Shown: positions 6,028 through 36,332, counted from the stretch's first letter. The stretch is 64,000 nt of DNA from an uncultured Elusimicrobia bacterium (GCA_964537395.1 CAZIBN010000002.1:14301-78300), one strand, 5' to 3'. Translations and numbers: made by a program. The notes: a model not told the origin generated them from the letters alone.

Positions 6028-8570
6028 TAGAATAGAGGTCCTAGGCCGAAGTTGATTTGATACAGGCGTTCGCCGTTGCGGTGGTTGAGGCCATAGCCGT
6101 AGTCGAGTCGGATCGGGAAGGCGGGGGTCACGAAGCGCAGGCCTAAGCCGACGTCGGTCTTGATGTTCGTCGTGCCCGAGCCGATGCGGCCGTTGACGTC
6201 GCGAACGCGGTCCCAGGCGCCGCCCGCGTCGGCGAAGATCACAAGCTTGACGATCGTTTTCTTGCGTTCGCGAGCGAGCGGGAAGCCGAACTCGACGTTC
6301 GCCACGCTGTAGATCTTGCCGCCCTGGGGGAAGCCGGCCTCGCCGGAAGGCGAGTAGCCGCGCAGGGAGTCTTGGCCGCCGATGAAGTAGCGGTCCTGGA
6401 CCGGCACATGCCGGGTCTTGTTGAACTGGGTCACGTAGCCGCCGCGGTGGTAGCCAGAGATCACGAAGGGCCAGTCCTCGATGCTGAAGAGAGTGTAATG
6501 GCCCTGGTTCGTGAGGCTGGGCTTGAAGAAGTGGATGTCACCCTGGAACGGTCCGCCCGAGAGCAGGGCGCCCACGCCGTGGCGGGTGCCGCGGGCCGGA
6601 TCCCAGATGCTGTCGCGCGTGTCGCGGGAGAATTCCGCGCCGAACGAGGACTGGATGCTGGTGCCCTCGGTGAGCGCGCCCCTGAACTGGTCCTGCACGT
6701 TCTCGATCGAGATCCGCGCCAGGCCGTAGGTCAGGTTGAGCTGATATTTGTCTTCCTCGAACCGGGGTCCGAGGCGGATCGAGCCTCCCATGCGCCGCTC
6801 GACATAGGCGGACAACGAGGTGTCGAACGGGTTGACCCGCCGGGTGTTGTAGACGTCGAAGCCGAGGCTCGTCGGGCTGTTGCCCACCCAGGGCGTCGTC
6901 CAGCTCACCGAGTAGTCCTGCACGCGCTTGCCGAACGACCATTGGATGGAGCCCTTCTGCGCGCGGCCGAACAGATTCAGATGCTGGAGGGACAGGGTGC
7001 CGATCAGGCCGTCCACCGACGAGTAGGCGGCGCCGGCCGTCAGGATGCCGGGCTTGCCCTCGGCCACGTCGAAGGTCAGGTCGACCTTGTCGGGATCCGA
7101 GGGCGTGGGCTGAAGATCGAGGTCGACGTCGTCGATGAAGCCGAGGTTGCGGATCTTCTCGATGCTGCGGCGCACGCGCGAGGAGCGGAAGATGTCGCCG
7201 GGCTTGATGACGATCTCGCGGCGCAGGACGAAGGTCTTGGTCGCCTTGTTGCCCTCGACGTCCACGTGGCCGACGTAGGAGATGGGGCCCTCGACGATCT
7301 CGAAGAGCACGTCCATGCGGTCCGTCTTGGGGTTCAGGGTTTTGACCGGGTTGATGCGGGTGCGCAGGCGGCCGCGGTCGGAGTAAAGCTCCTGGACGGC
7401 CCGTATGGTCTCCTCGAACTTCTCCTGGCTGAAGACCTTGCCCTTGCGGTACTCGACGGTCTTGGCGACCTCGCTCGAGGTGTAGATCAGGTGGCCCGTG
7501 AAGGTCGTCTCGCCGAAGCGATAGGAGCGGCCTTCGGTCACACCGAAGGCGATATTAATACGGGTCTTGTCGGCGCTGAGAGTGATGAGCGGGCTTGAGA
7601 TGGCGATATCGAGGAAGCCGTTGTTCTTGTAGTGCGCCTCGATCTTCCGGACGTCCTCGGGCAGGTCCTTCTCGAAGTAGACCTTCTTGCGGGCGTTCTT
7701 CATCAGCTTCAGCAGAACCTTGCGCTTGAAGGACTTGGCCCCGCTGAACTCGACGAGCTCGATGCGCGACTTCGCGCCTTCGGCTACCTTGAAGATCAGC
7801 TCCACCGTGGCGGTCTTGGTGTCGGTCTTGACCTCGGGCTCGACTGAGGCGTCAAGGAAGCCTTTCTCGTGATACTTCGCGATCAGCTTCCCTTGATCCT
7901 CGTCGAGCTTGGTCCGGTCGAAGGGGTCCTTGTTCTTGAGGGTGAGGATGTCGGAGAGCGCGCCGCGCGAGAGCTTCTTCTGGCCCGCGAAGGTGATCTT
8001 GCGGATCACGGGCTTCTCCCTGACGACGAAGTTGAGCAGAACCTGGCGGTCGGCGCCGGCGGCCTTGCGGAAGTGCTCGGGGACCTTCTTTTCGAGCAAG
8101 GTGATCTCCGCGCCGACACGCTCGAACAGGCCCAGGCCGAGCAGGGACTGGATATCCTTGTCGAGGTCGGGGCGGTCGTACAGGTCGCCCTTGCGGCCCT
8201 TGATGGCGCCGCGGATCGTGGAGAGCTTGGTGTTCTGCAACCCGTCGGCCTTGATGTCGCCGATGACCCAGGGGCGGGGCACCACTCCGGAGGCCGCCTC
8301 GACGGGTGCCGCCGTGGAAACGGAGGGGACCGCGTAGCCGGTCGCCAGGCCGGGCAAGGGCTGGGCCGTGGTCGAAACGGCCAAGGTTTCGGTCGAAATG
8401 GAGGGGGCCGTCGACAGGGAGGCTGTCGAGACCACTGGCGCGGCGGCTGCGGTTTCGGTCGAAACCGACGGCAACTCAGGAGAAGGCGATGTCACGGAGG
8501 ACACCGTCTGCCCCAGAGCCGACGACGACAGCACGGCCGCGGCGATAACGCTCATAAGGAAGCTTTTCAC
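6027..8570 (-). CDS. bamA: Outer membrane protein assembly factor BamA (Omp85)
   Basis: 847 aa. GTG start, signal peptide, S/T/A-rich linker, POTRA-like repeats, and a C-terminal Omp85 barrel ending QINFGLGPLF. 1-nt TAATG overlap with the skp start. Confidence 0.9.
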   Translation of the reverse strand: MKSFLMSVIAAAVLSSSALGQTVSSVTSPSPELPSVSTETAAAAPVVSTASLSTAPSISTETLAVSTTAQPLPGLATGYAVPSVSTAAPVEAASGVVPRPWVIGDIKADGLQNTKLSTIRGAIKGRKGDLYDRPDLDKDIQSLLGLGLFERVGAEITLLEKKVPEHFRKAAGADRQVLLNFVVREKPVIRKITFAGQKKLSRGALSDILTLKNKDPFDRTKLDEDQGKLIAKYHEKGFLDASVEPEVKTDTKTATVELIFKVAEGAKSRIELVEFSGAKSFKRKVLLKLMKNARKKVYFEKDLPEDVRKIEAHYKNNGFLDIAISSPLITLSADKTRINIAFGVTEGRSYRFGETTFTGHLIYTSSEVAKTVEYRKGKVFSQEKFEETIRAVQELYSDRGRLRTRINPVKTLNPKTDRMDVLFEIVEGPISYVGHVDVEGNKATKTFVLRREIVIKPGDIFRSSRVRRSIEKIRNLGFIDDVDLDLQPTPSDPDKVDLTFDVAEGKPGILTAGAAYSSVDGLIGTLSLQHLNLFGRAQKGSIQWSFGKRVQDYSVSWTTPWVGNSPTSLGFDVYNTRRVNPFDTSLSAYVERRMGGSIRLGPRFEEDKYQLNLTYGLARISIENVQDQFRGALTEGTSIQSSFGAEFSRDTRDSIWDPARGTRHGVGALLSGGPFQGDIHFFKPSLTNQGHYTLFSIEDWPFVISGYHRGGYVTQFNKTRHVPVQDRYFIGGQDSLRGYSPSGEAGFPQGGKIYSVANVEFGFPLARERKKTIVKLVIFADAGGAWDRVRDVNGRIGSGTTNIKTDVGLGLRFVTPAFPIRLDYGYGLNHRNGERLYQINFGLGPLF

Positions 8571-8589: not shown

Positions 8590-8627
8590 AAAAGGGCGGG
8601 CCCCCTTCCCAGGAGGCCCGCTTTTCC
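8590..8627 (-). terminator. Rho-independent terminator after the 8643..8999 gene
   Basis: GCGGGCC (8596-8602) pairs with GGCCCGC (8615-8621) around a 12-nt loop. On the minus strand the stem is followed by CCTTTTTGATA. It lies 16 nt after the stop. Confidence 0.7.
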
Positions 8628-8642
8628 TTATATGAACCCAAT

Positions 8643-8999
8643 TTAGGACTTGACGAACGCGCTATCGCTGGCTTCGGCATGAGCCTGGCTTCTCCCGGAA
8701 AGGCCGTCGAATGAGATCGAACCTGGGCCCGTCTCGACTTTAACGGGGGGCGGGACAGGCGTCGCCATCTTGAAGCGCGCTTCGCACCCTTTGCGCAGCC
8801 GCCCCGTCCGGGGCTTGCTCCGGGCTTTGAGGACGAAGGCATTGCCCTCGGGCACCAAAGTGAGGACGCACAGCTCGGCATCGAACTGGGTCATCTCCAC
8901 CGCGATCCCGGCGCTGCTGACCTCGACCGTGATGCCGCCCTCGGAGGCGTTCGCCCCGGACGCGCACGCCAGCATCGCCGCCGCCAAAATGATCCTCAT
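8643..8999 (-). CDS. Small exported protein of unknown function (possible lipoprotein)
   Basis: 118 aa. AAGGAG Shine-Dalgarno 6 nt before the ATG, signal peptide MRIILAAAMLACASG (a Cys sits at a lipobox-like position), its own terminator, and GC3-rich codons. I recognise no family. Confidence 0.7.
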   Translation of the reverse strand: MRIILAAAMLACASGANASEGGITVEVSSAGIAVEMTQFDAELCVLTLVPEGNAFVLKARSKPRTGRLRKGCEARFKMATPVPPPVKVETGPGSISFDGLSGRSQAHAEASDSAFVKS

Positions 9000-9110
9000 G
9001 ACGCTCTCCTTGGTCCGCCTGACTTCACCCTACACTACGGGCGGCGGGGAGAATAGGTTTCGTTTTGTGCGCGCTCTAAATCCGCAGCGGGCGGTTCAGA
9101 GGTTGCACCT

Positions 9111-9131
9111 AGGTATTGCGCCGCAATACAT
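9111..9131. promoter_or_regulatory. 21-nt palindrome AGGTATTG-N5-CAATACAT, candidate operator
   Basis: Arms TATTGCG and CGCAATA are perfectly complementary around one central base. The site ends 4 nt before the ATG of the HTH-like gene. A near-identical site sits at 15805-15825. Confidence 0.4.
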
Positions 9132-9134
9132 CGA

Positions 9135-9995
9135 ATGACATATACTACACGGATGAAGAAGCCCTATCCTTTCGCCGCCGTGCTGGCCCGCGTGCGCCGC
9201 GAGCAGGGCTTTGCCAACGCCCATTCGTTTTATAAGGCCCGTGACGGACGCCGGACCTTCGGCCTGTCTTTCGCCAACTACATGGCCCTCGAGAGAGGCC
9301 TGAGCCTGCCCAAGGCGTGGCGGCTGGTGGTGATACTCAAGGCGCTGGATCTCACCGATGCCGCTCCTCAATGGAAGGAGCTGGTCCGCTCCTACCTCAC
9401 CTGCCTGCTTGGCTCCGACGCGCTCCTCAAAGGCCTCGAGCCCGCTCCCGCGGTCTCGGCGGCGTTGACGAGCGACGAGGTCGGCCGCCAGGCTCTCAGC
9501 CAGCGCGCCGCGCAGCTCGAGCTCGGGCAGTGGCGTGTGCTCGCCGCGGATCCAACGGCTTATTACTGTCATGTCTATCTCGTCAACACGCCCGGGTGGT
9601 CGGGCGCGGACGAGATCGCCGATGCGCTCGCGCTGCCCGCGACGACGGTGAAAAAGGCCTTGAAGGCCCTCTCCACGGCGAAGATCATTGAGTTCGTCGG
9701 CGCCCGCGCACGCAGCCCCTTCGTCTACAAGTACCTTCAGACCTTGCCGCTGCTGCCCGCCACGGTCCATCTGAAGTCGCCTATCCTCAAGAGTCGCGAA
9801 GCCTTCGCGGCCGGACGCGGGCTGCTCGCTCTGCGCAGAAATGTGACGACGCGCATGACGAAGGCCGGCCTCGACCGCTATTTCCAGAAGCTGGCCGAGA
9901 CCGTCACCTTGTCGGGCGTTTACGGCGACGCGGAGAAGTCCGACGATTCCGATGTCTACTTCGTCGACGCGCGGATCTTCAAGATCTTCGACTAG
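9135..9995 (+). CDS. Putative HTH-type transcriptional regulator (resembles the TIGR02147/DUF4423 architecture from memory)
   Basis: 286 aa (or 280 aa from the second ATG at 9153). N-terminal helix-turn-helix-like segment FGLSFANYMALERGLSLPK and a second wHTH-like segment ADEIADALALPATTVKKALKAL. The family assignment has not been checked by a search. Confidence 0.55.
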   Translation: MTYTTRMKKPYPFAAVLARVRREQGFANAHSFYKARDGRRTFGLSFANYMALERGLSLPKAWRLVVILKALDLTDAAPQWKELVRSYLTCLLGSDALLKGLEPAPAVSAALTSDEVGRQALSQRAAQLELGQWRVLAADPTAYYCHVYLVNTPGWSGADEIADALALPATTVKKALKALSTAKIIEFVGARARSPFVYKYLQTLPLLPATVHLKSPILKSREAFAAGRGLLALRRNVTTRMTKAGLDRYFQKLAETVTLSGVYGDAEKSDDSDVYFVDARIFKIFD

Positions 9996-10053
9996 GAATC
10001 TGATGATCTACTACCGATTGCGCCGATCGGTCCGGCTCATCCATGTTCATTCA

Positions 10054-10076
10054 GCTACTAACAGATTGTTAGCAGC
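10054..10076. terminator. Hairpin in the convergent intergenic region
   Basis: GCTACTAACA-GAT-TGTTAGCAGC, with 9 of 10 stem pairs. There is no U tract, so its function is uncertain. Confidence 0.3.
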
Positions 10077-10102
10077 TCACTCCAGATGCTCCTGCCCCGG
10101 CT

Positions 10103-10145
10103 GGATGTAGATTGCAACGAGCTCGGGGCAACGGCATCTACATCC
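10103..10145. terminator. Long hairpin 19 nt downstream of the HEAT-repeat gene stop
   Basis: A perfect 10-bp stem, GGATGTAGAT (10103-10112) with ATCTACATCC (10136-10145), plus extra inner pairs. No U tract on either strand. Confidence 0.4.
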
Positions 10146-10163
10146 GACTGCTTGCTCAGTTTC

Positions 10164-10832
10164 CTAGCGAATCATCGCGCTGCTTTTCACGACCTTGATC
10201 GATTTCAACGCGGCCGCAGCGGCTTCGCGCACGCTTGCGTCCTTGTCTGCCGCCGCCGCCATGATGAGGTTGGCGATGATGGGATTCTCTTGGTTAAGGA
10301 GGCCGGTCGGGGTGTATTGCGTGATGGTTCCGAGCACTCGCGCCGCCTCAGCCCTCACCTTGGGCTCAGAGTCGGTCAGCGAAGGGATAAGCGTCGCGCC
10401 GATGGGGCTGACGAAGGCGTTGGGGACGTCCTTGATGCTCGAGATCATGCCGACGGCGCGTATGGCTCGGACGCGGACGGCTGGATCGCGATGGTCGACC
10501 ATCAGGTTGACCAGCTTGTAGATGACCCTGCAGTACTCGTCGTTGGTGATGTTGAGCTGGCCGACCGACGCGATGATGCGCTCCGCCGCCTCATCGGTCG
10601 TCGCTCCCAGGGAGGCGATCGTCAGACGCAGGACGTCCTCGCGGCTGTGCACGACCCGCGGTTCATCGTAGATATCCATCGGGACGGCGTTCACTGAGGG
10701 CTGGGCCTGGACGGCGTGCGTCTCGATCGCCGAAAGTGAGGCGGCGAAGTCCGAGTCCGTGGACGCATGAGCCCCGAGCGAGCTCAAAACGGTTCCGAGC
10801 GCCAGCATCGCGGCGAGAGGCTTGATGGTCAT
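10164..10832 (-). CDS. Exported HEAT-repeat protein
   Basis: 222 aa. Signal peptide, then repeated D-x-x-x-VR-x-x-A-x-x-x-LG/IK units (DPAVRVRAIRAVGMI, DSEPKVRAEAARVLGTI, DKDASVREAAAAALKSI). The start is 2 nt after the upstream stop. Confidence 0.7.
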   Translation of the reverse strand: MTIKPLAAMLALGTVLSSLGAHASTDSDFAASLSAIETHAVQAQPSVNAVPMDIYDEPRVVHSREDVLRLTIASLGATTDEAAERIIASVGQLNITNDEYCRVIYKLVNLMVDHRDPAVRVRAIRAVGMISSIKDVPNAFVSPIGATLIPSLTDSEPKVRAEAARVLGTITQYTPTGLLNQENPIIANLIMAAAADKDASVREAAAAALKSIKVVKSSAMIR

Positions 10833-10833
10833 G

Positions 10834-12159
10834 TTATTTCTCCTTACGGACTGCGTTGATGGCGTCCGTGGGCCATTCGTAATTGGTCCGGAGCCATTCG
10901 ATGTTCTTCATGGTCAGCACGCCCGTGTTCAGCGCCTGCTCGAGCTTGGCGACGAACAGCACGAGAGCACGGCCTTCCTCGGTCGAGTAATTGCGTCCGA
11001 GCAGGTCGTAGCTTTCCCAGGCGCCGGACGGGCCGGTGATCATGATCTTGTAGTGGCCGGGCACGGCGGGCCAGGCCTGGAGGCTGGCCTTGTAGCGGGG
11101 CAGGCTCATAGCGTTGATCCGCTCGTTTTCGGAAGAGCCGAGTTTCTCGATCCAGTCGTGCTCGGTTTGGAGCCGCTTGATGTCGCTGGCCCTCACTTTC
11201 CCTGCGTCGAGCGCGCGCTCGAGCTTGGCGGCGAATTGTGCAACGTCCCGGTCCTTGCTGGAGGCCAGCTGATCGCCGTAGACGCCGTAGGCGTCCCAGG
11301 CGCCCTTGGGTCCGGTGACCATGAGCTGATGGAAGCCGGGAACGGGAGACCAGGGCTGGAGCGTGACCCGGTGCGCGGTCAGCTTCATCGCGTTGATCTT
11401 CGCATAGCGGGGGCTGTCGAGGTCGGTGGGCCAGTTGTAAGAGTCCTTGAGGTCCTTGAGATCGGCGAGCTTGATCTTGCGCGCGTTGAGGGCGAGCTCG
11501 AGCTTGGAGACGAACTGCGCGACCTCCTTATCCTTGCCGAGGCCGAGGTTCGTGCCGAGCACGCCGTAGCTGTCCCAGGCGCCCTCGGGGCCGGTGACGG
11601 CGATGTGGTAGTAGCCGGGCACGCCGAGCCACGGCACGAGCGCTGCGGTGTAGCGGTCGAGCTTGACCTCGGCGACGCGGTCGAAGAGAGTGCGGGCGGG
11701 TACGCGAGCGGCGGCGGGCGCGGAGAGGTCCACGCTGACGGCTGGAGCGCTCTGCTCGCCGCTCAAAAGGGCTTGGAGCGTTCCGCCGTGCTCGCGGACA
11801 TCGGTCGAGCCGGCGCGAGTGAGGTCGCCGACGGCTTCGATCGCGGCGGCGACGCCGACGGCGGTCTGGGCTAATGGCGAAGCGTTTGCGGCGATGGGAG
11901 CGGTTTGCGCGGCCGCCACAGGTGCCGCCAGGGTGGGCGCGAGGGCCGGGACGGACATTAAACCCAGAGACGGCGTGGGCAGGACGCTCGCGGTCATGCC
12001 GGGCGTCATGGTGGGGGCTTGAATCACGGGAACGGGGCTTAAGGCGGCTCCGGCAGGAACAAGCGTGGGAATGCGCGTACCCGTGGTTACAACGGCGTGG
12101 CTGTCAGCCGGGAGGGCGGCGGCCAGAACGATCGATAGGGCGATGTTGATGTTTCTCAT
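10834..12159 (-). CDS. Exported protein: shared A/P-rich N-module plus three tandem copies of an unrecognised ~93-aa domain
   Basis: 441 aa. Signal peptide. Residues ~28-136 are paralogous to the 12289..13587 protein. Residues 166-441 form three repeats with conserved PW..VPG....[VI]TGP.GAW[DE].Y and A.F..KLE.AL. Confidence 0.8.
   Translation of the reverse strand: MRNINIALSIVLAAALPADSHAVVTTGTRIPTLVPAGAALSPVPVIQAPTMTPGMTASVLPTPSLGLMSVPALAPTLAAPVAAAQTAPIAANASPLAQTAVGVAAAIEAVGDLTRAGSTDVREHGGTLQALLSGEQSAPAVSVDLSAPAAARVPARTLFDRVAEVKLDRYTAALVPWLGVPGYYHIAVTGPEGAWDSYGVLGTNLGLGKDKEVAQFVSKLELALNARKIKLADLKDLKDSYNWPTDLDSPRYAKINAMKLTAHRVTLQPWSPVPGFHQLMVTGPKGAWDAYGVYGDQLASSKDRDVAQFAAKLERALDAGKVRASDIKRLQTEHDWIEKLGSSENERINAMSLPRYKASLQAWPAVPGHYKIMITGPSGAWESYDLLGRNYSTEEGRALVLFVAKLEQALNTGVLTMKNIEWLRTNYEWPTDAINAVRKEK
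10837..11664 (-). repeat. Three tandem in-frame coding repeats of ~279 bp (10837-11106, 11107-11385, 11386-11664)
   Basis: By-eye protein alignment of KLDRYTAALVPWLGVPGYYHIAVTGPEGAWDSYGV, KLTAHRVTLQPWSPVPGFHQLMVTGPKGAWDAYGV and SLPRYKASLQAWPAVPGHYKIMITGPSGAWESYDL, with period 93 aa. Confidence 0.8.
11752..12078 (-). repeat. Copy A of the paralogous N-terminal module (DNA-level similarity to 13213-13527)
   Basis: Long stretches align at nucleotide level, for example gatcgcggcggcgacgccgacggcggtctgg (copy A) against gatcgcggcggcgactacgacggcggtctgg (copy B), and cttgaatcacgggaac against tttgaatcactggaac. Confidence 0.8.
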
Positions 12160-12262
12160 GACGTCAGTGTATCTCCCGAATTTATTTGGAACCTGGGGCG
12201 GTGGGGAAGGCGCGCGGCGGCAAAGGGCCGTTCTGCGGGACGATAGAGAAGATGAGAACAGG

Positions 12263-12277
12263 TATCGTGGTACGATA
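12263..12277. promoter_or_regulatory. Palindrome TATCG-N5-CGATA, a divergent relative of the TATTG-N5-CAATA sites
   Basis: AGGTATCGtggtaCGATAgca lies in the 129-bp gap between the two halves of the exported-protein gene set, about 105-118 nt upstream of the ATG at 12159. That is the same distance as site 15805-15825 from the ATG at 15703. Confidence 0.25.
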
Positions 12278-12288
12278 GCAGCTCCGGA

Positions 12289-13587
12289 TCAGTCGATGGG
12301 TCCTCGCACGGGCCGCAGGCGGATGCTTTCGATATCGAGAGATAAGGGCATGACTTCGTAGCTCGATCCGGTTCCGTTGAGCGTGTCCGCGCGACCATCG
12401 CTCCCGATAGCCCGGGTGTAGTTGCTGTGCGCATGGCCGACCACCTCGACATCCTCGAACCCGTGCTTCTCACCCCAATCTTTAAGATTAAGGAAGGCCT
12501 CCCGCAGGGTCGGCATCTCTAATTTATCCGTCAAAACCCAAGTCGGATCGTAACGCACCGGCTCAGAGTCGCGATAAAGCGCCCTGACATGTTTGACGGT
12601 GACCCAGGGCTGCTTGACGCTGACGTTCTCCACTCCATAGCGTCCGACGAGCCCCTTGTATACGCCGGGGCCGTCTCTGTAGATGGTTTCTCGGATCGGC
12701 TGCGATTCGGCTATGGCCTGAGCGGTGAGGAACGGGTACATCGTGTCGCGGATGTAACTGCGGATCTCCGGAGGAATCCGCACGACGATGCCGCTGAGCG
12801 TATCCTGAAATTCCGGACGGGAAAATACGGATCTATTAAGGCCGGTCATCATCGGTCCGAGAAGAGGGATCAATTCCGGCGTGATGGTGTAGGCGTTCTT
12901 TGCGGTCGGATAATAGGCCACCTGCGTTACAAAGGCATTCACCTTGTCGACCGCGTCTATGCGCAGCCATCCATAGCTCATGTCCTCGCCCATGATCCGG
13001 AGAAGATCGGGCTGGTCCGCCTTCACGAGGGTCGCCGTGTGGTGCTTGCCGCTCAAATCCATGAACTTGATGTCCGTTCCGATCAGCGACGCCGCGATTT
13101 GGCGCTTAACGCTTTTCTCCGTAGAAAAGAATCGGCGGAGGCGGGCGTAAGAAGTGTTCGCGGGCGTTCGCGCGGAGACGGGTTCGGCCGGACCCTCGCC
13201 GGCGCTGGGCGCGCTTTGGCCGGAGAGAAGGGCCTGAATGCGGCCGCCGAGTTCGCGAGCGTCGGAAGTCTCAATGCGTGAGGGGTCGCCGGCGGCTTCG
13301 ATCGCGGCGGCGACTACGACGGCGGTCTGGCTCAGCGGCGAAGCGTTCGCGGCGACGGGAACGGGCCGCGCGGCCGCCGCCAGGGCGGGTGCGAGAGCGG
13401 GGGCCGGCATCGAGGCCAGAGACGGCGAGGGCAGAACGCTTGCGGTCAGGCCGGGCGCCATGACGGGAGTTTGAATCACTGGAACTGGGCTTAGCGCGGC
13501 GCCGAACGGAACGAGGGCGGGAACGCGCATAGTCTGAGAGTGCGCGGTCGAGATAAGGAAGCAGGAGACGAGGGTTATTGTTTTCAT
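12289..13587 (-). CDS. Exported protein: shared A/P-rich N-module plus an unrecognised ~300-aa C-terminal domain
   Basis: 432 aa. Signal peptide MKTITLVSCFLISTAHS. Residues 21-125 are paralogous to the 441-aa protein. The C-terminal domain matches no family I recognise (it contains VVGHAHSNY). Confidence 0.8.
   Translation of the reverse strand: MKTITLVSCFLISTAHSQTMRVPALVPFGAALSPVPVIQTPVMAPGLTASVLPSPSLASMPAPALAPALAAAARPVPVAANASPLSQTAVVVAAAIEAAGDPSRIETSDARELGGRIQALLSGQSAPSAGEGPAEPVSARTPANTSYARLRRFFSTEKSVKRQIAASLIGTDIKFMDLSGKHHTATLVKADQPDLLRIMGEDMSYGWLRIDAVDKVNAFVTQVAYYPTAKNAYTITPELIPLLGPMMTGLNRSVFSRPEFQDTLSGIVVRIPPEIRSYIRDTMYPFLTAQAIAESQPIRETIYRDGPGVYKGLVGRYGVENVSVKQPWVTVKHVRALYRDSEPVRYDPTWVLTDKLEMPTLREAFLNLKDWGEKHGFEDVEVVGHAHSNYTRAIGSDGRADTLNGTGSSYEVMPLSLDIESIRLRPVRGPID
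13213..13527 (-). repeat. Copy B of the paralogous N-terminal module
   Basis: See 11752-12078. Protein level: RVPALVPFGAALSPVPVIQTPVMAPGLTASVLPSPSL...ANASPLSQTAVVVAAAIEAAGD against RIPTLVPAGAALSPVPVIQAPTMTPGMTASVLPTPSL...ANASPLAQTAVGVAAAIEAVGD. Confidence 0.8.
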
Positions 13588-13589
13588 GG

Positions 13590-14378
13590 TTATCGGAGGC
13601 TGTTGTATTGCTTGAAGGTCAGGACTTCAACGGCTTGCTGCCAGCCTTGCCCGGGAGCGATGACCTTGGTGTCGCGGCCCCATTCGGCCATGCCCTTTAA
13701 CCGGATGTCGTCCATCGGGTTCTTGCCGTCGTTCTTGACGGCCTGAGCCGCATCGAGCAAAGTCGTGTAGTATTCGGCCTTGAGCGCGTTGAATTGAGCG
13801 AGCATTTCGGCGCCGGGGTTTATCCGCAGGCGCCCCTGGACGGCACCAGCGAGGAAGGGCAGTTTTTTGCGCACGGCTGCGTACAGCGCATCACCGCTGA
13901 TCTCGAGCTCGAAGGGGGCCGTTTTCATGTGGATGGTGCCGGCGAAGTCCGGGGCTCCGAGGTAAGTGGACATCATCTTATTGAGGAACTTGGCTTCGGC
14001 CAGGATCTGATCGAGCTTCGCGTTCTGGCCATTTCGATGTGCGGCCAGAATCTCGAGCGCTTTGGTGACTTTGTTGAGCGAGAGCTGAACCTGATCTTTT
14101 AGCTTGTACAGCGCTATTTTTCTGGCGTCATCGGTCTCCGCGCTGATCAGGACATCGATTTTAGTAAGGACGCCTTCGAGTTCAGCCTTGGCTTCCTTGA
14201 GGGATTCCTCGCCATCCGCATCCGGGGCCTGAGAAAGGCCGACCGCGGAGGCGGCGCTCAGCTCAGCCGCGCGGCTGGCCGACGCGAACGCTTCATCGAG
14301 ATCGGGTTGGCTCCAGGCGTTCTGCTCGGCGTGCGCAGTCGTGATCATGAGGCATGAGACGAGGAGTATTGTTTTCAT
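13590..14378 (-). CDS. Exported, predicted mostly helical protein of unknown function
   Basis: Start re-set to the ATG at 14378 (MKTILLVSCLMITTAHAEQ...), giving 262 aa. The track ORF to 14708 adds 110 R/P-rich residues overlapping the upstream gene. The signal peptide and start junction are duplicated from the next gene. Confidence 0.75.
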   Translation of the reverse strand: MKTILLVSCLMITTAHAEQNAWSQPDLDEAFASASRAAELSAASAVGLSQAPDADGEESLKEAKAELEGVLTKIDVLISAETDDARKIALYKLKDQVQLSLNKVTKALEILAAHRNGQNAKLDQILAEAKFLNKMMSTYLGAPDFAGTIHMKTAPFELEISGDALYAAVRKKLPFLAGAVQGRLRINPGAEMLAQFNALKAEYYTTLLDAAQAVKNDGKNPMDDIRLKGMAEWGRDTKVIAPGQGWQQAVEVLTFKQYNSLR

Positions 14379-14380
14379 GG

Positions 14381-15703
14381 TTATTTGAAGTAACGGTTCA
14401 TCAGGTCGGATAGGCGGTTTTTCTCGGCGAGGCTGCGATCGTCGAAAAAGAAGATGGACGCGAGCAGCGGCAGCAGCGGCACGGCTATGGCGCCGAGGGC
14501 ACTGAGGGAAGAAATATCGCTGAAGTAGCCGAAGATGGTCGCGAAGACCACTGCGAGGGAGCCGGCGAGGGAGGCGATCACCAGCGCGGTGGACGCGAAA
14601 TCGGCATGCTTGGATAATCGCACCTTCGCGGCCTGCAGGCGATCCCAACTCGGAAAACCGAGCCCGCCGTCGCGGATCGCGGCCAGGACGCGGGCTTGCA
14701 CAGCCCAATTCCAGTCCGAGTCGGTGACGGTGTTGCGGTAGTAGTCGTCGATGGAGCGCACATCGTGGGCGGTCACGCGGCCGTTGCCGGAGAAGTGGGA
14801 GACGGCTTTGCCGAGGGGGCCTGTGGTCGCCGTATTTTCACCGCGCTGCTTGAGGGCCAGCAGCCTTCCCGTCATGTTGTTCGTCCATCGCGACGGGGAA
14901 ATCGTTCCGTCTTCCATGCGGGCCTGCAGGGCGGCGCGCAGAAGATCGACTTCGGCCGCGCTCCACGGCCCGGGCTGCACCTGTGCGACGGCGCCAAGGC
15001 GCAGATCGATGACGCGCTCGGCGGAATCGGAAGCCTGCTCGGGATTGCCGGCGGCGTCGAGCCAGACGGTTTTGTCGCCGTCACGCTCGCTGCGCATCAA
15101 GGTCTTCGCGTCGAAGGCTCCGGCGGCGATCTTCGCGGGGAGGTCCTCGACGAAGGCGCGCCACGCGGCCTGGCGGACCTTTTCATACGCCGCGACGCGT
15201 TCCTCGAGCATCACCAGGCCGATAATGGTGCGGTCGTTGATGTAAACGCTCATCTCCCGCCCGTATTTGGCTTCGGACGCCACGTAAGGGAACTCCGAAC
15301 GTCCTATGCCCTTGTTCGTATCGAGGGCGACGCGCCAGACCTGCATGGCGAGACGTTCCTCGGTGAGTAGGGCGGCGGCGTTGAGCACCTTCAGCTTGGC
15401 CTCGGTCGGAAGCGCCGCGAACCGGGCTGGGTCCTCGCCGCGCAGAACGAGGGTTTCCACGAGAGGATTGAGAAGCTGAGGCGAGGAGAAGAGCGGAAGG
15501 CGGCCGTCCGCGCCGGGCGTGGCCAGGCGCGGGAGTGATAGCGAGCCGAGTTGAGAGACGCGCTCCAGGCCGGCGGCGCTGACGGCGCCCGAGATGGGGC
15601 CGGCCCAGGCGGCGGCGCCCGGCGTGGGCGCGGAGACTCGGACCTGGGCGAGAGCGGGCGAGGCGAGAAGTGACGACAGCACTACGAGGCTGAGTTTGAT
15701 CAT
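14381..15703 (-). CDS. Exported or membrane-anchored protein of unknown function (signal peptide plus two C-terminal hydrophobic helices)
   Basis: 440 aa. Signal peptide MIKLSLVVLSSLLASPALAQ. C-terminal TALVIASLAGSLAVVFATIFGYF and LGAIAVPLLPLLASIFFF. First gene of the unit. I recognise no family. Confidence 0.75.
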   Translation of the reverse strand: MIKLSLVVLSSLLASPALAQVRVSAPTPGAAAWAGPISGAVSAAGLERVSQLGSLSLPRLATPGADGRLPLFSSPQLLNPLVETLVLRGEDPARFAALPTEAKLKVLNAAALLTEERLAMQVWRVALDTNKGIGRSEFPYVASEAKYGREMSVYINDRTIIGLVMLEERVAAYEKVRQAAWRAFVEDLPAKIAAGAFDAKTLMRSERDGDKTVWLDAAGNPEQASDSAERVIDLRLGAVAQVQPGPWSAAEVDLLRAALQARMEDGTISPSRWTNNMTGRLLALKQRGENTATTGPLGKAVSHFSGNGRVTAHDVRSIDDYYRNTVTDSDWNWAVQARVLAAIRDGGLGFPSWDRLQAAKVRLSKHADFASTALVIASLAGSLAVVFATIFGYFSDISSLSALGAIAVPLLPLLASIFFFDDRSLAEKNRLSDLMNRYFK

Positions 15704-15804
15704 TACGCCTAGTGTAACGCCCGGCTCGATTTTGGGCCTGAGGCATTGGGGAGAGGTTTTGGCGGCAAGAGGCTTATCTGCGGCACATGAACAGAAGCCG
15801 CGTC

Positions 15805-15825
15805 ATGTATTGTGATGCAATACAT
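15805..15825. promoter_or_regulatory. 21-nt palindrome ATGTATTG-N5-CAATACAT, candidate operator
   Basis: Perfect 8-nt arms. Located about 102-122 nt upstream of the ATG at 15703. Shares 15 of 16 arm positions with 9111-9131. Confidence 0.4.
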
Positions 15826-15846
15826 TGTTTGGACGAAAAAAGAGAA

Positions 15847-15868
15847 GGCCCTCTCTTTCGAGAGGGCC
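15847..15868 (-). terminator. Rho-independent terminator of the inositol operon
   Basis: GGCCCTCTC-tttc-GAGAGGGCC, a 9-bp perfect stem 25 nt after the MIPS stop. On the minus strand it is followed by TTCTCTTTTTTCG. Confidence 0.85.
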
Positions 15869-15892
15869 TTCCTTATTAAGGCGCGTCCGGCG

Positions 15893-17284
<1,392 letters not shown>

Positions 17285-18433
17285 TGTGGTTGATTCTCCT
17301 GAGAAACAGCATGATCGCGAAAAACAGGGTGCCGCCGATGGCGGCGGCCCAGAGGAACTCGTACACCATGTCCACGAAGGCCAGGAGCACGAGCAGGTAG
17401 ATGAAGTCGCGCTGGGCGAGCGCGTTCTCGAGGCGGGACAGCTTGGATTCGAAGCCGTCGCCCTCGGGTTGCTCCACGACGCCGGCCTCGGGCCCCTTCG
17501 TGCTGCGGCGGGCGAGGCGGTGCTTCCAGGCGGTCCACGCCGAGGCGAGCACGCCCGCGTCGGCGATCGCTGCCAGGGCCAAGGTGTGCACGCCGTTGCC
17601 CGTCCGCCAGAAGCCGATGCCCAGGCAGGTGAACAGGGCCAGATGCACGAGGTTGTCGCCCCAGAAGTCGAGGTCGGAGCCGAGAGGGCTTTCCTGGAAG
17701 CGCACGCGCGCGAGTTCGCCGTCGCAGCCGTCGAGCACCGAGTGCAGCCAGATCAGAAGGGCGCCGATCACGTAGAAAAGGCGGGTGTCGCCCAGAAAGA
17801 AGCTCGCTCCGATCAGGCCGAGGATCGTGCTGAACACGGTCATCTGATTGGGCGTGACCGTGGTGTCGAGCAGGGCGCGGCTTGCGGCGAGCGAAAGGTG
17901 GCGGTCGAAGTGGCGGGCCATGAAGCCGTCCTGCGGCTTGGGCCCCGCGACCATGAGCCAATCCACGATCGGGCCCTGGGAGAGCGGCGCCTCCAGGCGG
18001 ATGCAGGAGCCTTCGGGCAGGGGCTGGCCGGTGCGGTAGATCGTATCCTCGCGGGTGAGAACGACCTGGACGACGCTGAGGACGGAGGCGTCGTTGTAGC
18101 TGACTGAGGTGGGAAAGCTCTGCCGGGCGATGAAGGCCAGGGTCTCGATGCGGATGAGATGGTCGGCGGAGATGCCGAGATAGGGCGGCTCGCATTCGGT
18201 CAGCGCCGCCGTTCCCTTGGTCACCCAGCGCACCTCGAGGCCGGGCGGCAGGCGCATGATCCCAATCTGGGCGTCGTCGGGCTTGGACATCGCGACGAAG
18301 ACGGACTTGATGCCCGCGCGAGCGAGGGTGAACAGCTGGCGCTCGATGACGAGCATGCCGCCGGCGCGATGCCAGAGGAGCTTGGGATGGGCGACCCAGA
18401 GGATGGCACGCGTGAAAACATTCTCCGCTGCGG

Positions 18434-19417
18434 TCATGACGCGGTCTCCCTCGCGCCGTAGGCCGCGCGGATTGAGGAAATGCAGAACGCTGCTTCGGCC
18501 AGATTCTCGCCGCGGTGCATTCCTCCGCATTCGGCCTCAAAAGACGGCCACATCGAGGCAAGCCATTCGGGGTGTGCGGAGCCTCCTGAGAGCTTTTCGG
18601 CAAAACGCGTGGTCTCTTCAACGCCCTCGGACTTAATGGTGAGAGAGTCGTCGCGCAATTCCGCGGTGCCGCGTTCGCCGGTGATGAAGGCATGATTGGA
18701 ACGCTCGCCCGAGCGCCAGGAGAGGTGCATGGTTCCGGACGCGGCGGGAGCCGCGAACAACGCGGTCGCAACGTCGTCCACGGAGCCGCGCGGATGAAGG
18801 ACGACGTCGACAATAGATATTTTAGGGCCCAGAAGACGTCGCATCAAATAGAGATTGTGCCAGCCGTGATCCACGAAAATGCCGCCGCCCGAGATGGCCG
18901 GGTCTTTGCGCCAGTCGTTCGGCGAAGCCGAAACGGACGGGCGCGTGCGAAGCACGCGAATATCAGCGTGACGAATGGGTCCAAGGCGGCCGGAGGCCGC
19001 AACCTCGAGAAGCCGGCTCCATTGAGGTGAATACGCCCAATTGTTGATGCTATACACACACACGTTCCGCGAAGCGGATTCCGTTTGGATCTGGGCGAAG
19101 ATTTCAGGATCCAATGTCAGGGGCTTCTCGCAGAGGACGTGGATGCCTGCACGAATTCCAGATAAAATTGCCGTTCCGTGATAGCTTGGCGGAGAGCAAA
19201 CGATGAGGGCGTCCAACGATCTCTCCGCCGACAGCAACGCTTCCACGGAGTCGTAGATGCGGGCGTGCGGCAGCGAACGGATCGCCGCTTCGCGGCGTAA
19301 TGGCGAGGGCTCGGCGACCGCATCCACGACGACGCTGAGAGAGCGCAAAGCCGATAAATGCGCGCCCTCGGCGATGGCCCCGAAGCCGACTAAGCCGACG
19401 CGACGGATCTTGTTCAG
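18434..19417 (-). CDS. Gfo/Idh/MocA-family oxidoreductase (inositol 2-dehydrogenase family), probable CTG start
   Basis: The track ORF starts at TTG 19348, but the Rossmann motif KIRRVGLVGFGAIAEGAH is encoded upstream in frame. The only plausible start is CTG 19417-19415, which forms a CTGA overlap with the upstream stop and has AAGAGG 8 nt upstream. EKP motif: LCEKPL. Confidence 0.7.
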   Translation of the reverse strand: MNKIRRVGLVGFGAIAEGAHLSALRSLSVVVDAVAEPSPLRREAAIRSLPHARIYDSVEALLSAERSLDALIVCSPPSYHGTAILSGIRAGIHVLCEKPLTLDPEIFAQIQTESASRNVCVYSINNWAYSPQWSRLLEVAASGRLGPIRHADIRVLRTRPSVSASPNDWRKDPAISGGGIFVDHGWHNLYLMRRLLGPKISIVDVVLHPRGSVDDVATALFAAPAASGTMHLSWRSGERSNHAFITGERGTAELRDDSLTIKSEGVEETTRFAEKLSGGSAHPEWLASMWPSFEAECGGMHRGENLAEAAFCISSIRAAYGARETAS

Positions 19418-20757
19418 AGTGAGCGCCTCTTCGCGACCACAGTCATCGCTTCAGCCATGAGGTCGAGACCATCAAGAGCTTGCTTCTCCGTGATCACGAG
19501 CGGCGGGTTGATGCGCAGCGAAGGATTGTATGCCATCGTCAAAACGCCGCGTTTTAGGCCTTCCTCAAAAATCTCCTTACAGATATTCTTGTCGAGGGGT
19601 TTTTTATCCTTCGGATTGACGAGATCGACACCAATCATCAAGCCGCGGCCGCGCAGAGAACCGATCAACGGCTGCTGCTGCTGGATCTTGGTGAGGCGCT
19701 GGAGCATCGCCGCGCCTACCGTCGCGGCGTTCTCGACGAGCTTGTCGCGTAAAATAATCTGCAAAGTCGTGTCGCAGGCCGCCGACGCCAGCGGATTGCC
19801 GCCATAGCTCGAAGACGACCCCGACGGATTGGACCACGGCTTAGACATCGAGATCTCGTTGGTGGTAACCACGCCCGACACCGGGAAGCCGCCGCCGAAG
19901 CCCTTGCCGATGGTCATCATGTCGGGGATGACCCCCTCATGATCGCACCCGAACATCTTCCCCGTGCGTCCGAAGCCCGTGATCATCTCGTCGGAAATAA
20001 ACACCGCCCCGATCTCCTGGGCGAGTTCCTGGACGCCCTTGAAGAAACCTTTCGGAGGAATCACGTTGCCGTTGGTCCCCTGCACCGGCTCGATGATGAT
20101 CGCCGCCACCGCGCCCGTCGTCTCGCGCTTGATCTTCTCGCGCAGGAATTCCAGCGAATGCGCTCCGCAATCGTGCGGCGCTGTCGCGCCGAACGGACAT
20201 TTCCGGGAATCGGGATAGGGAGAGAGATGCAGCCCGGGCGCCGTCGCCCCGTACCCGTTCTTGAAGCCGTCATTGAGCAGGCCCATGACTCCCTGCGTCT
20301 TGCCGTGGAACCCGCCCCAAAATCCGATGACCTCGAACTTCCCCGTCTTGCTTTTCGCGAGCCGCAAAGCAGCCTCGACCGCCTCCGCTCCTGAGCTGTA
20401 CAACTGGCAGCGGTTCAAGCCCTTCGGCGTCACGGACGCCAGGGTCTTGAGGAAATTGACGCGGTGCGGCGTGGTGAAGGAGCCGACCGCGGTCTTCGCG
20501 GCCTGCTCGCCGATCGCCTTCGCCCACTCCGGGTGGCCGTAGCCCAGCGAAGCGACGCCGATGCCCGCGACGAGATCCAGATATTCCTTGCCATCCACGT
20601 CGCGAAGCGACGCGCCTTTGCCGCCGTCGATGGCGAGCTGGGCGTACAACGCGATCGTCTGCAGCCCGGGAGCTATATACTCCTGCTCTTCTTGAAAGAG
20701 GGCTTTCGATTTCGGCCCGGCCGAATACGGGGCGTCCGTCAGCGTCTGAGAGGTCAT
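19414..20757 (-). CDS. Class-III pyridoxal-phosphate-dependent aminotransferase
   Basis: Start re-set to the ATG at 20757 (MTSQTLTD...), 447 aa. The track ORF adds 91 R/P-rich residues. Motifs SGAEAVEAALRLA, ISDEMITGFGRTGKMF and the PLP-lysine context MTIGKGFGGGFP. Confidence 0.85.
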   Translation of the reverse strand: MTSQTLTDAPYSAGPKSKALFQEEQEYIAPGLQTIALYAQLAIDGGKGASLRDVDGKEYLDLVAGIGVASLGYGHPEWAKAIGEQAAKTAVGSFTTPHRVNFLKTLASVTPKGLNRCQLYSSGAEAVEAALRLAKSKTGKFEVIGFWGGFHGKTQGVMGLLNDGFKNGYGATAPGLHLSPYPDSRKCPFGATAPHDCGAHSLEFLREKIKRETTGAVAAIIIEPVQGTNGNVIPPKGFFKGVQELAQEIGAVFISDEMITGFGRTGKMFGCDHEGVIPDMMTIGKGFGGGFPVSGVVTTNEISMSKPWSNPSGSSSSYGGNPLASAACDTTLQIILRDKLVENAATVGAAMLQRLTKIQQQQPLIGSLRGRGLMIGVDLVNPKDKKPLDKNICKEIFEEGLKRGVLTMAYNPSLRINPPLVITEKQALDGLDLMAEAMTVVAKRRSL

Positions 20758-20762
20758 GTCGT

Positions 20763-21605
20763 TTATCCTTTTTTGCCCGCGACCTGGCGGAGGCGAAGCC
20801 GGAGCCGGCGGGCGATCTGGACCGCCGCTTCGGAGCGCACGCGCGCGAAGCTCGGCCAGCTGTTGATGTCGATGATATAAATCTTTCCCTCGGGAGTGAT
20901 GATGGCGTCGCCGCCGAACACCTCGACCTTCACGGTCTTGGCGGCGAGCTCGGCCTGGGCGGCGAGGTCCTCGAGCTCGAAGGGCAGGCGGCGGGCGGTG
21001 GAAGGATCGTGGTAGAACCACGTGAACCACTGGCCGGGGCCGACGCCGTAGAACTTGATGAGGTCGCCGTCGGTGTGGCGCTGGATCGCGAGATCCTTGA
21101 TCTCCCGGCTCTCGAACTCGCGCCGGATCTTCTCGGCTTCGTCCCAGTCCTTGGCGAAGACCACGTCGTAGGCGCAGGTGTTATGCACGTCGCCGCGCTT
21201 GAGCCACCAGCCTCCGTCGGCCTCGAAGTCGGGCGCCTTCTTGTTGGCGTCGGCGGTGGAGCGGCGCACCACCGTGGACGGATACGAGAGGCCGGGCGTG
21301 TTCGCGAAAGATTCGAGCATGCGCGTGCGGTAGCAGCCGAGCACGGAGTCGGCGGGGTTGACCGTCACGACGCCGGTCTCGGCCTCGATCTTCTTGAGGC
21401 GCATGAGGCGCGGGTAGGTCTCGCACATCGGGACGATGAGATCGAAGCCTTTCCCGTCGGCGCGGTCGAATTCCTCAGGGGTCATCACCGTGACCTCGGT
21501 CTTGAGGATCGAGAGCTGGTCCATCACCGCCTTGAGGATCAGCGCGTCATCGGACTCGCGGCCGGGGGAGTTCTGGGTCTCGCGCAAAATACCAAGAGCT
21601 TTCAT
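20763..21605 (-). CDS. ATP-grasp domain enzyme (ligase or kinase; specificity unknown)
   Basis: 280 aa. ATP-grasp features WWLKRGDVH, LIKFYGV, and a C-terminal EVFGGDAIITPEGKIYIIDINSWPSF (Mg-ATP loop). 4-bp overlap with the upstream gene. Confidence 0.7.
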   Translation of the reverse strand: MKALGILRETQNSPGRESDDALILKAVMDQLSILKTEVTVMTPEEFDRADGKGFDLIVPMCETYPRLMRLKKIEAETGVVTVNPADSVLGCYRTRMLESFANTPGLSYPSTVVRRSTADANKKAPDFEADGGWWLKRGDVHNTCAYDVVFAKDWDEAEKIRREFESREIKDLAIQRHTDGDLIKFYGVGPGQWFTWFYHDPSTARRLPFELEDLAAQAELAAKTVKVEVFGGDAIITPEGKIYIIDINSWPSFARVRSEAAVQIARRLRLRLRQVAGKKG

Positions 21606-27994: not shown

Positions 27995-28011
27995 ATGCTG
28001 GTCCCGGCCTA

Positions 28012-36297: not shown

Positions 36298-36332
36298 GAT
36301 CGGACTTTGGTATCTTTCTCTTTTAAGAGAAC

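Follow-up and report, generated by a model that had tools for sequence, protein, structure and literature searches.

Islands of hypothetical exported proteins are common in bacterial genomes, and several described kinds of locus or protein bear comparison with the locus reported here. Contact-dependent inhibition (CDI)/Rhs/MafB-like polymorphic toxin loci combine a conserved N-terminal part with alternative C-terminal parts, exchange cassettes, and carry a small coupled gene downstream, while local winged-helix regulators of the MarR/TrmB type have a dyad before their own gene and before their target operons. ClyA/Xax/Ahl toxins are all-alpha proteins with a hydrophobic hairpin and tandem paralogues, and HEAT/PBS-lyase-like repeat proteins are an established bacterial family. 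Phage-shock-protein (PSP)/Lia neighbourhoods join envelope-directed products to a local regulator; Toastrack and Band-7 proteins recur as partners of PSP systems, and Toastrack has been argued to be intracellular (PMC11237479). The locus described here shares some traits with each of these systems and lies in a stretch of 64,000 nucleotides (nt), hereafter the window, which is rich in guanine plus cytosine (GC, ~65%) and comes from an uncultured Elusimicrobia bacterium (GCA_964537395.1, CAZIBN010000002.1:14301-78300). It comprises five consecutive minus-strand genes, G1 to G5 (10164-15703), and a conserved regulator-like gene, REG, which is convergent with G5. Hardly any Elusimicrobiota have been cultivated, and little is known of their cell envelope.

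The organisation of the locus is of a familiar kind, namely a variable island of exported modular proteins beside a local dyad-binding regulator, and its unusual traits are a rigid, duplicated control module and a clean cassette behaviour. The island extends over about 7 kilobases (about 8600-15870) and is built of interchangeable gene cassettes. It is best read as a REG-controlled, lineage-restricted mosaic island of envelope proteins exported through the general secretory (Sec) pathway, which would form a non-enzymatic structural or adaptor module. Taken as a composite, this reading is tentative and is held at slightly less than even confidence, although its descriptive part, a REG-linked mosaic island of exported orphans, is much firmer than its functional part. 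The genes and the recognisable parts of their products are the following (ORF, open reading frame; aa, amino acids):

14381-15703, minus strand: G1, ORF of 440 aa; signal peptide, all-alpha ectodomain, C-terminal hydrophobic helical hairpin
13590-14378, minus strand: G2, 262 aa, opening at an internal ATG within a longer ORF; signal peptide
12289-13587, minus strand: G3, 432 aa; signal peptide, N-module, orphan C-domain of ~290 aa
13204-13527, minus strand: N-module of G3, A/P-rich, common to G4
10834-12159, minus strand: G4, 441 aa; signal peptide, N-module, three 93-aa repeats
11740-12075, minus strand: N-module of G4, common to G3
11410-11688, 11131-11409 and 10837-11130, minus strand: the three 93-aa repeat copies of G4
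10164-10832, minus strand: G5, 222 aa; exported HEAT-repeat protein

All five are ORFs with the coordinates and lengths given in a preliminary description made from the sequence alone, and the signal peptide that it ascribed to every product is borne out by reading the sequences and by a hydropathy scan. Each N-terminus has a basic Lys/Arg n-region, a hydrophobic core of 10-15 aa (Kyte-Doolittle 2.2-2.75), and a small-x-small site, the predicted cleavage sites being ALA-Q, AHA-E, AHS-Q, SHA-V, and AHA-S from G1 to G5. The n-h-c pattern with small residues at -3/-1, typical of Sec export and cleavage by signal peptidase I, is thus present in all of them, and the sites are kept in orthologues. 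With an estimated ~20% of a diderm proteome exported, the chance of five such products in a row would be ~3e-4. A lipoprotein reading of the 'LVSC' motif in G2 and G3 was dropped because its Cys is not conserved, being replaced by Trp in the orthologue P0009 and missing in the G2 genes of L001 and L012; moreover, this Cys stands at residue 9, which leaves too short an h-region. The G1/G2 and G2/G3 junctions both read TAA-CC-ATG and 129 nt separate G3 from G4, so that three of the gaps described earlier (2, 2, and 129 nt) hold, whereas the G4/G5 junction, TAA-C-ATG, leaves 1 nt (10833) and not 2. A clear Shine-Dalgarno sequence (AAGGAGA) precedes only G5 among the five genes, and G2 and G3 appear to be translated via stop-start coupling.

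The genes are tied to REG through a control module that occurs twice in the window, and the elements that bear on it are listed below:

15700-15827, minus strand: control module 1, with dyad, box TCATGTGCCGCAGATAAGCC, and CTCAGG-N20-TACACT-N7-ATG(G1); model match 86 bits, E 1e-25
12155-12281, minus strand: control module 2, filling the 129-nt G3/G4 gap; model match 75 bits, E 2e-22
9113-9129, no strand assigned: REG operator, dyad GTATTGCGCCGCAATAC, centred ~32 nt 5' of the REG start, between REG and the divergent gene S118
9153-9995, plus strand: REG, conserved regulator-like protein of 280 aa from its probable true start
15843-15872, minus strand: terminator-like hairpin just after Ino1, with a 13-bp stem, 8 GC pairs, and the T-run tail CTTTTTTCGT
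10103-10145, no strand assigned: perfect inverted repeat of 10 bp, GGATGTAGAT ... ATCTACATCC, with a 23-nt loop, between the convergent G5 and REG and without a T-run

In module 1 the dyad GTATTGTGATGCAATAC (GTATTG-N5-CAATAC, 15807-15823) is centred 112 nt 5' of the G1 start; in module 2 the dyad CTATCGTACCACGATAC (12262-12278) precedes the box CCGCAGAACGGCC and CCCAGG-N20-TACACT-N6-ATG(G4), and its centre lies 111 nt 5' of the G4 start. The dyads GTATTGCGCCGCAATAC and GTATTGTGATGCAATAC are near-identical, with 2 matches against 0.01 expected by chance. The palindrome (9113-9129 and 15807-15823), noted before as common to the gene set and a regulator, is real, and the link to the regulator is much stronger than could be seen then. 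Across relatives, the ~130 nt from dyad to start codon are conserved in alignment and keep a fixed order of dyad, box TCATGTGCCGCAGATAAGCC, CYCAGG, exactly 20 nt, TACACT, 5-7 nt, and ATG, and the dyad before REG is found at the same position. A sequence model built from 13 modules of 11 distinct related loci recovers exactly two full copies in the window, with the REG operator as a partial match, and one or two copies per related locus. In all 13 modules the dyad centre lies 111-112 nt 5' of an ATG that opens a signal-peptide ORF, and the arms of the dyad co-vary, a T:A pair being replaced by C:G (TATTG/CAATA to TATCG/CGATA). Rfam has no match in the window, and RNAalifold finds in the control modules the dyad and a weak hairpin only, without supporting covariation; the module was therefore treated as a DNA-level promoter/operator. 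Readings of CYCAGG-N20-TACACT as a sigma-54 or a standard sigma-70 promoter were rejected on the misfit of the spacing. Since the 129-nt gap holds a second promoter-operator module, the set consists of two blocks that resemble transcription units, G1-G2-G3 and G4-G5, and the former view of five genes in one tightly coupled unit has to be given up. On the other side, the strong terminator after Ino1 sets the five genes apart from the inositol operon, and the inverted repeat between G5 and REG may act as a two-way terminator.

The ORF of REG opens at 9135, but this start is probably 18 nt too early because all orthologues start at MKKP, which corresponds to 9153; a TATACT lies 6 nt 5' of 9153, and the REG mRNA may be leaderless. 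A single segment of REG (residues ~137-201) gives weak winged-helix signals, since TrmB, MarR/ZitR, Rrf2, GntR, and HTH_24 all match there below their cut-offs (TrmB at 18.3 bits where 25.6 are required; MarR/ZitR at E 0.018, sub-threshold). As in local MarR/TrmB-type regulators, a 17-bp dyad, identified from sequence, stands before REG itself and before each cassette operon, and REG is most likely the regulator that controls the island. However, its 280 aa are about twice the size of a MarR protein and pass no family cut-off, and its operator differs from the MarR/TrmB type in lying ~111 nt 5' of the target start codons, within a rigid module that carries the unusual CYCAGG-N20-TACACT.

The mosaic nature of the island becomes evident in the related loci, in which the genes are arranged as follows (a slash stands for a control module or operator, and '><' for convergent genes; G1' is a tandem paralogue of G1, and F an exported family described below):

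window: G1-G2-G3 / G4-G5 >< REG / S118
L016: G1-G4-G5 >< REG, then BamA
L015: G1-G4-G5
L001, L012: G2-G4-G5 >< REG / F-Toastrack; without G1 and without G3
L017: G2-G4-G5-F / G1 >< REG / Toastrack
L018: F / G1 fragment-G1 >< REG / Toastrack
L005: G1'-G1-G3-G5; without G2 and without G4
L002: G1'-G1 >< REG
L003, L014: G1 >< REG
L007: REG / G4-like, then an FGE-sulfatase protein
L010: SPFH-G1; without REG

The N-module is carried by either G3 or G4, and among the fetched loci the window alone has both. In all seven loci with G3 or G4, the N-module gene is followed by G5 (after G3 in L005; after G4 in the window, L001, L012, L015, L016, and L017), which is 75-86% identical whichever cargo precedes it. 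The G4 orthologue of one relative (P0003) bears a G3-type signal peptide, and the first 54 nt of G2 and G3, together with the preceding TAA and 2-nt spacer, are 85% identical (repeat D7); this duplication and the P0003 signal peptide make recombination at the 5' ends of cassettes plausible. Divergence is uneven as well. The BamA of the window is about equidistant from those of L001 and L003 (nonsynonymous divergence, dN, 0.10 for both), whereas REG has a dN of 0.29 to L003 but 0.07 to L001, and G1 a dN of 0.56 to L003 (L001 lacks G1); in L017, which has an L003-type REG and G1, G2-G4-G5 are still 70-78% identical, and G2-G4-G5 keep an identity of 70-84% even where REG and G1 fall to 63% and 49%. 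Thus, the island follows its own course of evolution and exchange, apart from the core genes that flank it.

Orthologues are present on at least 10 metagenomic or metagenome-assembled genome (MAG) contigs. Pairwise ratios of nonsynonymous to synonymous divergence (dN/dS) are 0.25-0.40 for G1-G5, against 0.11-0.20 for REG, BamA, and Ino1 in the same comparisons; the five genes are real and under a purifying selection about 2-3 times more relaxed than that of their neighbours. G1, the most widely distributed of the island families, has a homologue on a complete Elusimicrobiota MAG chromosome (CP096137.1), and a profile-guided scan of GTDB (185,579 species, one genome each) found G1 relatives in 3 records, all of them Elusimicrobia/Elusimicrobiota MAGs; a GTDB scan with G4 found no relatives. 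On these searches, the families are confined to a narrow Elusimicrobiota clade.

Some of the related loci deserve comment in their own right. In L010 (3807-5915), from a New Zealand groundwater Elusimicrobia MAG, a G1 homologue of 42% identity, the most distant one found, lies directly 3' of a 702-aa SPFH/Band-7 protein, with no REG, dyad, or other cassette nearby. In L007 (4373-5242), the exported FGE-sulfatase-domain protein 3' of the G4-like gene begins MKTMTLKPLAVL...ASSDDAF..SL, which resembles the start of G5 (MTIKPLAAML...ASTDSDF..SL), and it may represent another module swap behind a common signal peptide and N-terminus. Family F comprises exported proteins of 334-336 aa that stand beside the REG operator or inside a cassette operon in relatives and are missing from the window:

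L001, 3848-4858: family F member
L003, 8878-9882: family F member
L012, 793-1776, minus strand: family F member
L017, 3468-4478: family F member
L018, 1-936: family F member

With an invariant HExxH (IHELTHA) and a weak SprT-like match, family F is probably an unclassified zincin metallopeptidase. Finally, the contig CALRXP010000130.1 (L005/L009) has a GC content of 64% and island proteins 63-78% identical to those of the window, and for these reasons its species label, 'Candidatus Endomicrobium trichonymphae', looks doubtful.

Apart from G5, the products are orphans. G1-G4 match no family in Pfam, NCBIfam, PADLOC, or PHROGs, and HEAT in G5 is the sole family found there across G1-G5, REG, and S118. 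Searches of PDB sequences with single sequences and profiles gave nothing at E < 0.01 for G1, G2, G3, G4, or REG. In a word-indexed search of 5.8 billion protein clusters, G4 had 7 close relatives, G3 a single orthologue, and G1 15 relatives, the least similar at 38% identity; all of these proteins lack Pfam domains. An exhaustive phmmer search with G3 against 1.84 billion representatives returned 6 proteins: the orthologue, P0025, which is a distant stand-alone exported relative of the G3 C-domain (35% identity), and four N-module carriers, including a distant three-repeat G4-like protein, P0027. Among the 15 billion proteins searched, only two types of N-module cargo occur. In the literature, nothing relevant was found on DUF4423/TIGR02147 or on exported proteins of Elusimicrobia. 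No curated family or solved structure corresponds to G1, G2, REG, the N-module, the C-domain of G3, or the repeat of G4, and only G5 belongs to a known family, in keeping with the earlier statement that no catalytic or structural family apart from HEAT was recognised. The check by AlphaFold and Foldseek that had been proposed, run on G1 (against PDB and the viral predicted structures of BFVD) and on the G4 repeat (against PDB), also revealed no known family. Neither model has a PDB match better than E 0.27, the best BFVD match of G1 has an E of 0.08, and overall the best E values are 0.08-0.9 with template-modelling (TM) scores <= 0.36. Since no known families were found and the genes are syntenic in relatives, neither of the two findings that the preliminary description had named as fatal to its proposal, membership of well-known families or absence of synteny in any relative, applies.

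The individual proteins nevertheless show clear features, and those described earlier all stand. G1 does end in two hydrophobic helices (residues ~367-390 and ~399-422, coded by 14438-14605), followed by a short basic tail, and its AlphaFold2 model from 15 homologues (mean predicted local confidence, pLDDT, 86; predicted TM score 0.71) is all-alpha with one beta-hairpin and a long C-terminal transmembrane hairpin. G2 has a helical N-half and a mixed C-half. Its reading as a PspA/Snf7 (ESCRT-III) protein was rejected at 16.9 bits against a cut-off of 27.3, the match being missing or weaker in three orthologues; its best PDB match, ATP synthase b (E 0.48), is coiled-coil noise, and profile-profile tests show no relation to the HExxH family F or to G1. 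The N-module of ~105 aa seen in the third and fourth proteins is 68% identical between G3 and G4 over 112 aa and consists of a Pro/Ala-rich spacer and a conserved segment, ASPL-QTA--VAAAIE--GD, beyond which the C-terminal parts are unrelated. Neither His nor Cys is conserved in the G3 C-domain, as the 'GHAHS' of the window is 'GLARS' in the orthologue (HAH to LAR), and neither an enzyme-like family nor a conserved catalytic motif was found in the family and PDB searches or in the alignment of this domain. The three copies of a novel domain in G4 have a period of 279 nt and are 37-40% identical, and the AlphaFold2 model of a single repeat, from 18 repeat copies, has an alpha-beta3-alpha-alpha order (pLDDT 79). 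In P0007, a 255-aa G4 relative on a 1049-nt ENA contig, there is one chimeric repeat with the front of repeat 1 and the end of repeat 3, which reflects either an in-frame deletion by inter-repeat recombination or an assembly collapse. The last protein, G5, is indeed a HEAT-repeat protein and exceeds the Pfam cut-offs for HEAT (48.8 bits against 23.5, E 3.9e-13), HEAT_2 (46.5 against 27.7), and HEAT_EZ (39 against 27), as other bacterial HEAT/PBS-lyase-like proteins do, and matches alpha-solenoids in PDB, designed proteins among them, with an E of 2e-8. It differs from them in having a signal peptide, in being short (about 4-5 repeats), and in its fixed place beside N-module genes.

Under the preferred reading, REG would bind the dyads, repress its own gene, and switch the cassette operons G1-G2-G3 and G4-G5, whose TACACT-N6-ATG spacing would give leaderless transcripts. 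The products would pass the inner membrane via Sec, and G1 would be anchored there by its C-terminal hairpin, so that the all-alpha domain would project into the periplasm. The N-module of G3 and G4 could serve as a common tether or docking element that presents alternative C-terminal domains, and G5 could be its shared binding partner, because it follows the N-module gene whichever cargo is present. The set would thereby play a structural or adaptor role in the periplasm or on the outer surface, and its composition is reshuffled among close relatives, as would be expected where proteins are exposed to phages, predators, or envelope stress. The earlier suggestion of a cell-envelope or surface apparatus is conjectural. 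Several points weigh against this scheme. The topology of G1 is ambiguous, since both flanks of its hairpin are basic, which under the positive-inside rule speaks against a periplasmic N-domain. The partnership of G5 and the N-module is a co-occurrence in ~7 phylogenetically related loci, and in L007 the FGE-sulfatase-domain protein takes the place of G5. G1 is found without REG or cassettes in L010, and L001 and L012 have no G1, so the five proteins need not act together. Moreover, the winged-helix matches that suggest a DNA-binding domain in REG are all sub-threshold and all on one segment, the promoter assignment was made by eye, and the 20-nt spacing between CYCAGG and TACACT fits no consensus known to us. 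A more far-reaching possibility, considered unlikely, is a new Elusimicrobiota-specific envelope system with new folds, in which a periplasmic HEAT adaptor would dock interchangeable proteins via a shared N-terminal helix and a new class of 280-aa dyad-binding regulators would act on leaderless promoters with a fixed upstream operator; the candidate new folds would be those of the G1 ectodomain, the repeat of G4, and the C-domain of G3.

Other explanations dispense with a joint structural role. The interval between Ino1 and BamA could be a recombination hot-spot that tolerates insertions, in which unrelated accessory genes with alike export signals would share no function. Such a view is consistent with a gene set from which any family can be missing, with G1 alone in an unrelated context in L010, with the exported C14 peptidase, FGE-sulfatase, PAP2, HExxH, and Toastrack genes that occupy the same slots in relatives, and with the relaxed dN/dS against the flanks. 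However, it does not account easily for the same rigid, REG-tied control module on every cassette block, for stop-start junctions of 1-2 nt that imply co-translation, for the joint travel of G2-G4-G5 across both REG types, or for the constant company of G5 behind an N-module gene, and the hot-spot is accordingly given a rather low probability. Even less probable is a polymorphic exported effector and immunity system, in which the N-module would serve for trafficking, the C-domain of G3 and the repeats of G4 would be alternative toxic or effector cargos, and G5 would be the immunity protein. The earlier idea of a polymorphic cassette survives insofar as relatives differ in gene subsets and orders and carry the N-module on either G3 or G4, and here, as in CDI/Rhs/MafB-like loci, one conserved N-module precedes two unrelated C-terminal parts, cassettes are exchanged between relatives, and a small, tightly coupled gene follows downstream; in P0025, moreover, the C-domain of G3 forms an exported protein by itself. 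The idea is not supported insofar as there are two cargos only and G5 does not co-vary with them, the same HEAT gene being common to both and not cognate. In addition, the cargo of G4 consists of one small alpha/beta domain repeated three times, Pfam, NCBIfam, PADLOC, and PDB yielded no toxin family, no conserved catalytic set of the His/Cys/Asp type was found, no type V, VI, or VII or other dedicated secretion genes occur in any fetched locus, and dN/dS stays well below 1 (< 0.4). A classical polymorphic toxin system is thus disfavoured by the lack of both a toxin-like domain and a dedicated secretion system.

An envelope-stress analogue of the Psp/Lia kind, in which REG would sense damage and induce exported protective proteins while the Toastrack lipoprotein served as a signalling platform, appears improbable to a like degree. 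PspA-type proteins are cytoplasmic, whereas G2 has a signal peptide, and all products of the set are exported. In favour of the analogy, a Toastrack (DUF4097) gene adjoins the REG operator in L001, L012, L017, and L018, and the window keeps the truncated S118 in that place; an SPFH/Band-7 gene stands beside the G1 homologue of L010, and both are recurrent PSP partners (PMC11237479); G2 gives a weak Snf7-like match. Yet that match is sub-threshold and does not recur in orthologues, Toastrack, argued to be intracellular in that work, has an export/lipoprotein signal here, there are no PspA, PspC, LiaF, or two-component genes, and the Toastrack copy of the window is degenerate while the island is intact. 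Lastly, G1, together with its tandem paralogue in relatives, might be an alpha-pore-forming or otherwise membrane-active protein of the ClyA/Xax/Ahl type, with the other genes as accessories. Its all-alpha model, its size of ~440 aa, its hydrophobic hairpin, and the tandem pairs in L002, L005, and L018 recall these toxins, and AhlB and SmhB are among the low-ranking Foldseek matches. Those matches are insignificant, however (E 7-9, TM 0.12-0.16, root-mean-square deviation > 40 A), no sequence match to ClyA/Xax/Ahl was found in Pfam or PDB searches, the hairpin lies at the very C-terminal end and is followed by a basic tail, which resembles a membrane anchor and not a buried toxin head, and a Sec signal in a diderm delivers to the periplasm only, all of which leaves a pore-forming G1 very improbable.

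The surroundings of the island agree with the location given before, between outer-membrane-biogenesis genes and an inositol operon: one flank holds BamA-OmpH/Skp-LpxD-LpxC, and the other Ino1, a CDP-alcohol phosphatidyltransferase, a GFO/IDH/MocA oxidoreductase, and a class-III aminotransferase. The inositol operon (15893-21605, minus strand, in the window; 1122-7973 in L002/L003) also contains a nucleoside-triphosphate (NTP) transferase and a HAD hydrolase, and this makeup points to an inositol head group or solute that is aminated or modified in another way and not to plain phosphatidylinositol. At the BamA end of the island lies a further small gene:

8643-8999, minus strand: S118, 118 aa, exported/lipoprotein-like; followed by a terminator at 8596-8621

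S118 is 28-44% identical to the N-terminal part only of a 234-265-aa Toastrack/DUF4097 lipoprotein of relatives (L001, L012, L017, L018); it has no Pfam match and does not reach the PF13349 cut-off, while the relatives' full-length genes pass the DUF4097 cut-off. Judged by these alignments, S118 is a truncated remnant of the Toastrack lipoprotein that has lost its C-terminal half. In BamA itself, an N-terminal extension of ~85 aa, rich in Ser/Thr/Ala/Pro/Val and with repeated VSTE/STA motifs, precedes POTRA (window 8250-8510, residues ~20-105), and low-complexity spacers after the signal peptide seem common in the envelope proteins of this organism, G1, G3, and G4 included. Farther away, the region 28000-36300 (plus strand) has a GC content of 0.68-0.70 and a strong negative AT skew (-0.3 to -0.42) and encodes a run of large polytopic membrane proteins (O-antigen-ligase-like/YfhO-like by eye), then methyltransferase-like and glycosyltransferase-like ORFs, and probably represents a locus for envelope glycans.

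The locus is well defined and testable, and its clade is narrow. It supplies four protein families and probably several folds without described relatives. If it is true that the HEAT protein docks alternative N-module proteins, nature would offer here a simple system in which periplasmic or surface modules can be exchanged; otherwise, the locus would be one more variable island of hypothetical exported proteins. In either case, the sharply defined cis-module (dyad at -111/-112 and CYCAGG-N20-TACACT-N6-ATG) could define a whole regulon from the genome sequence alone, and this control module could teach what promoters look like in the Elusimicrobiota.

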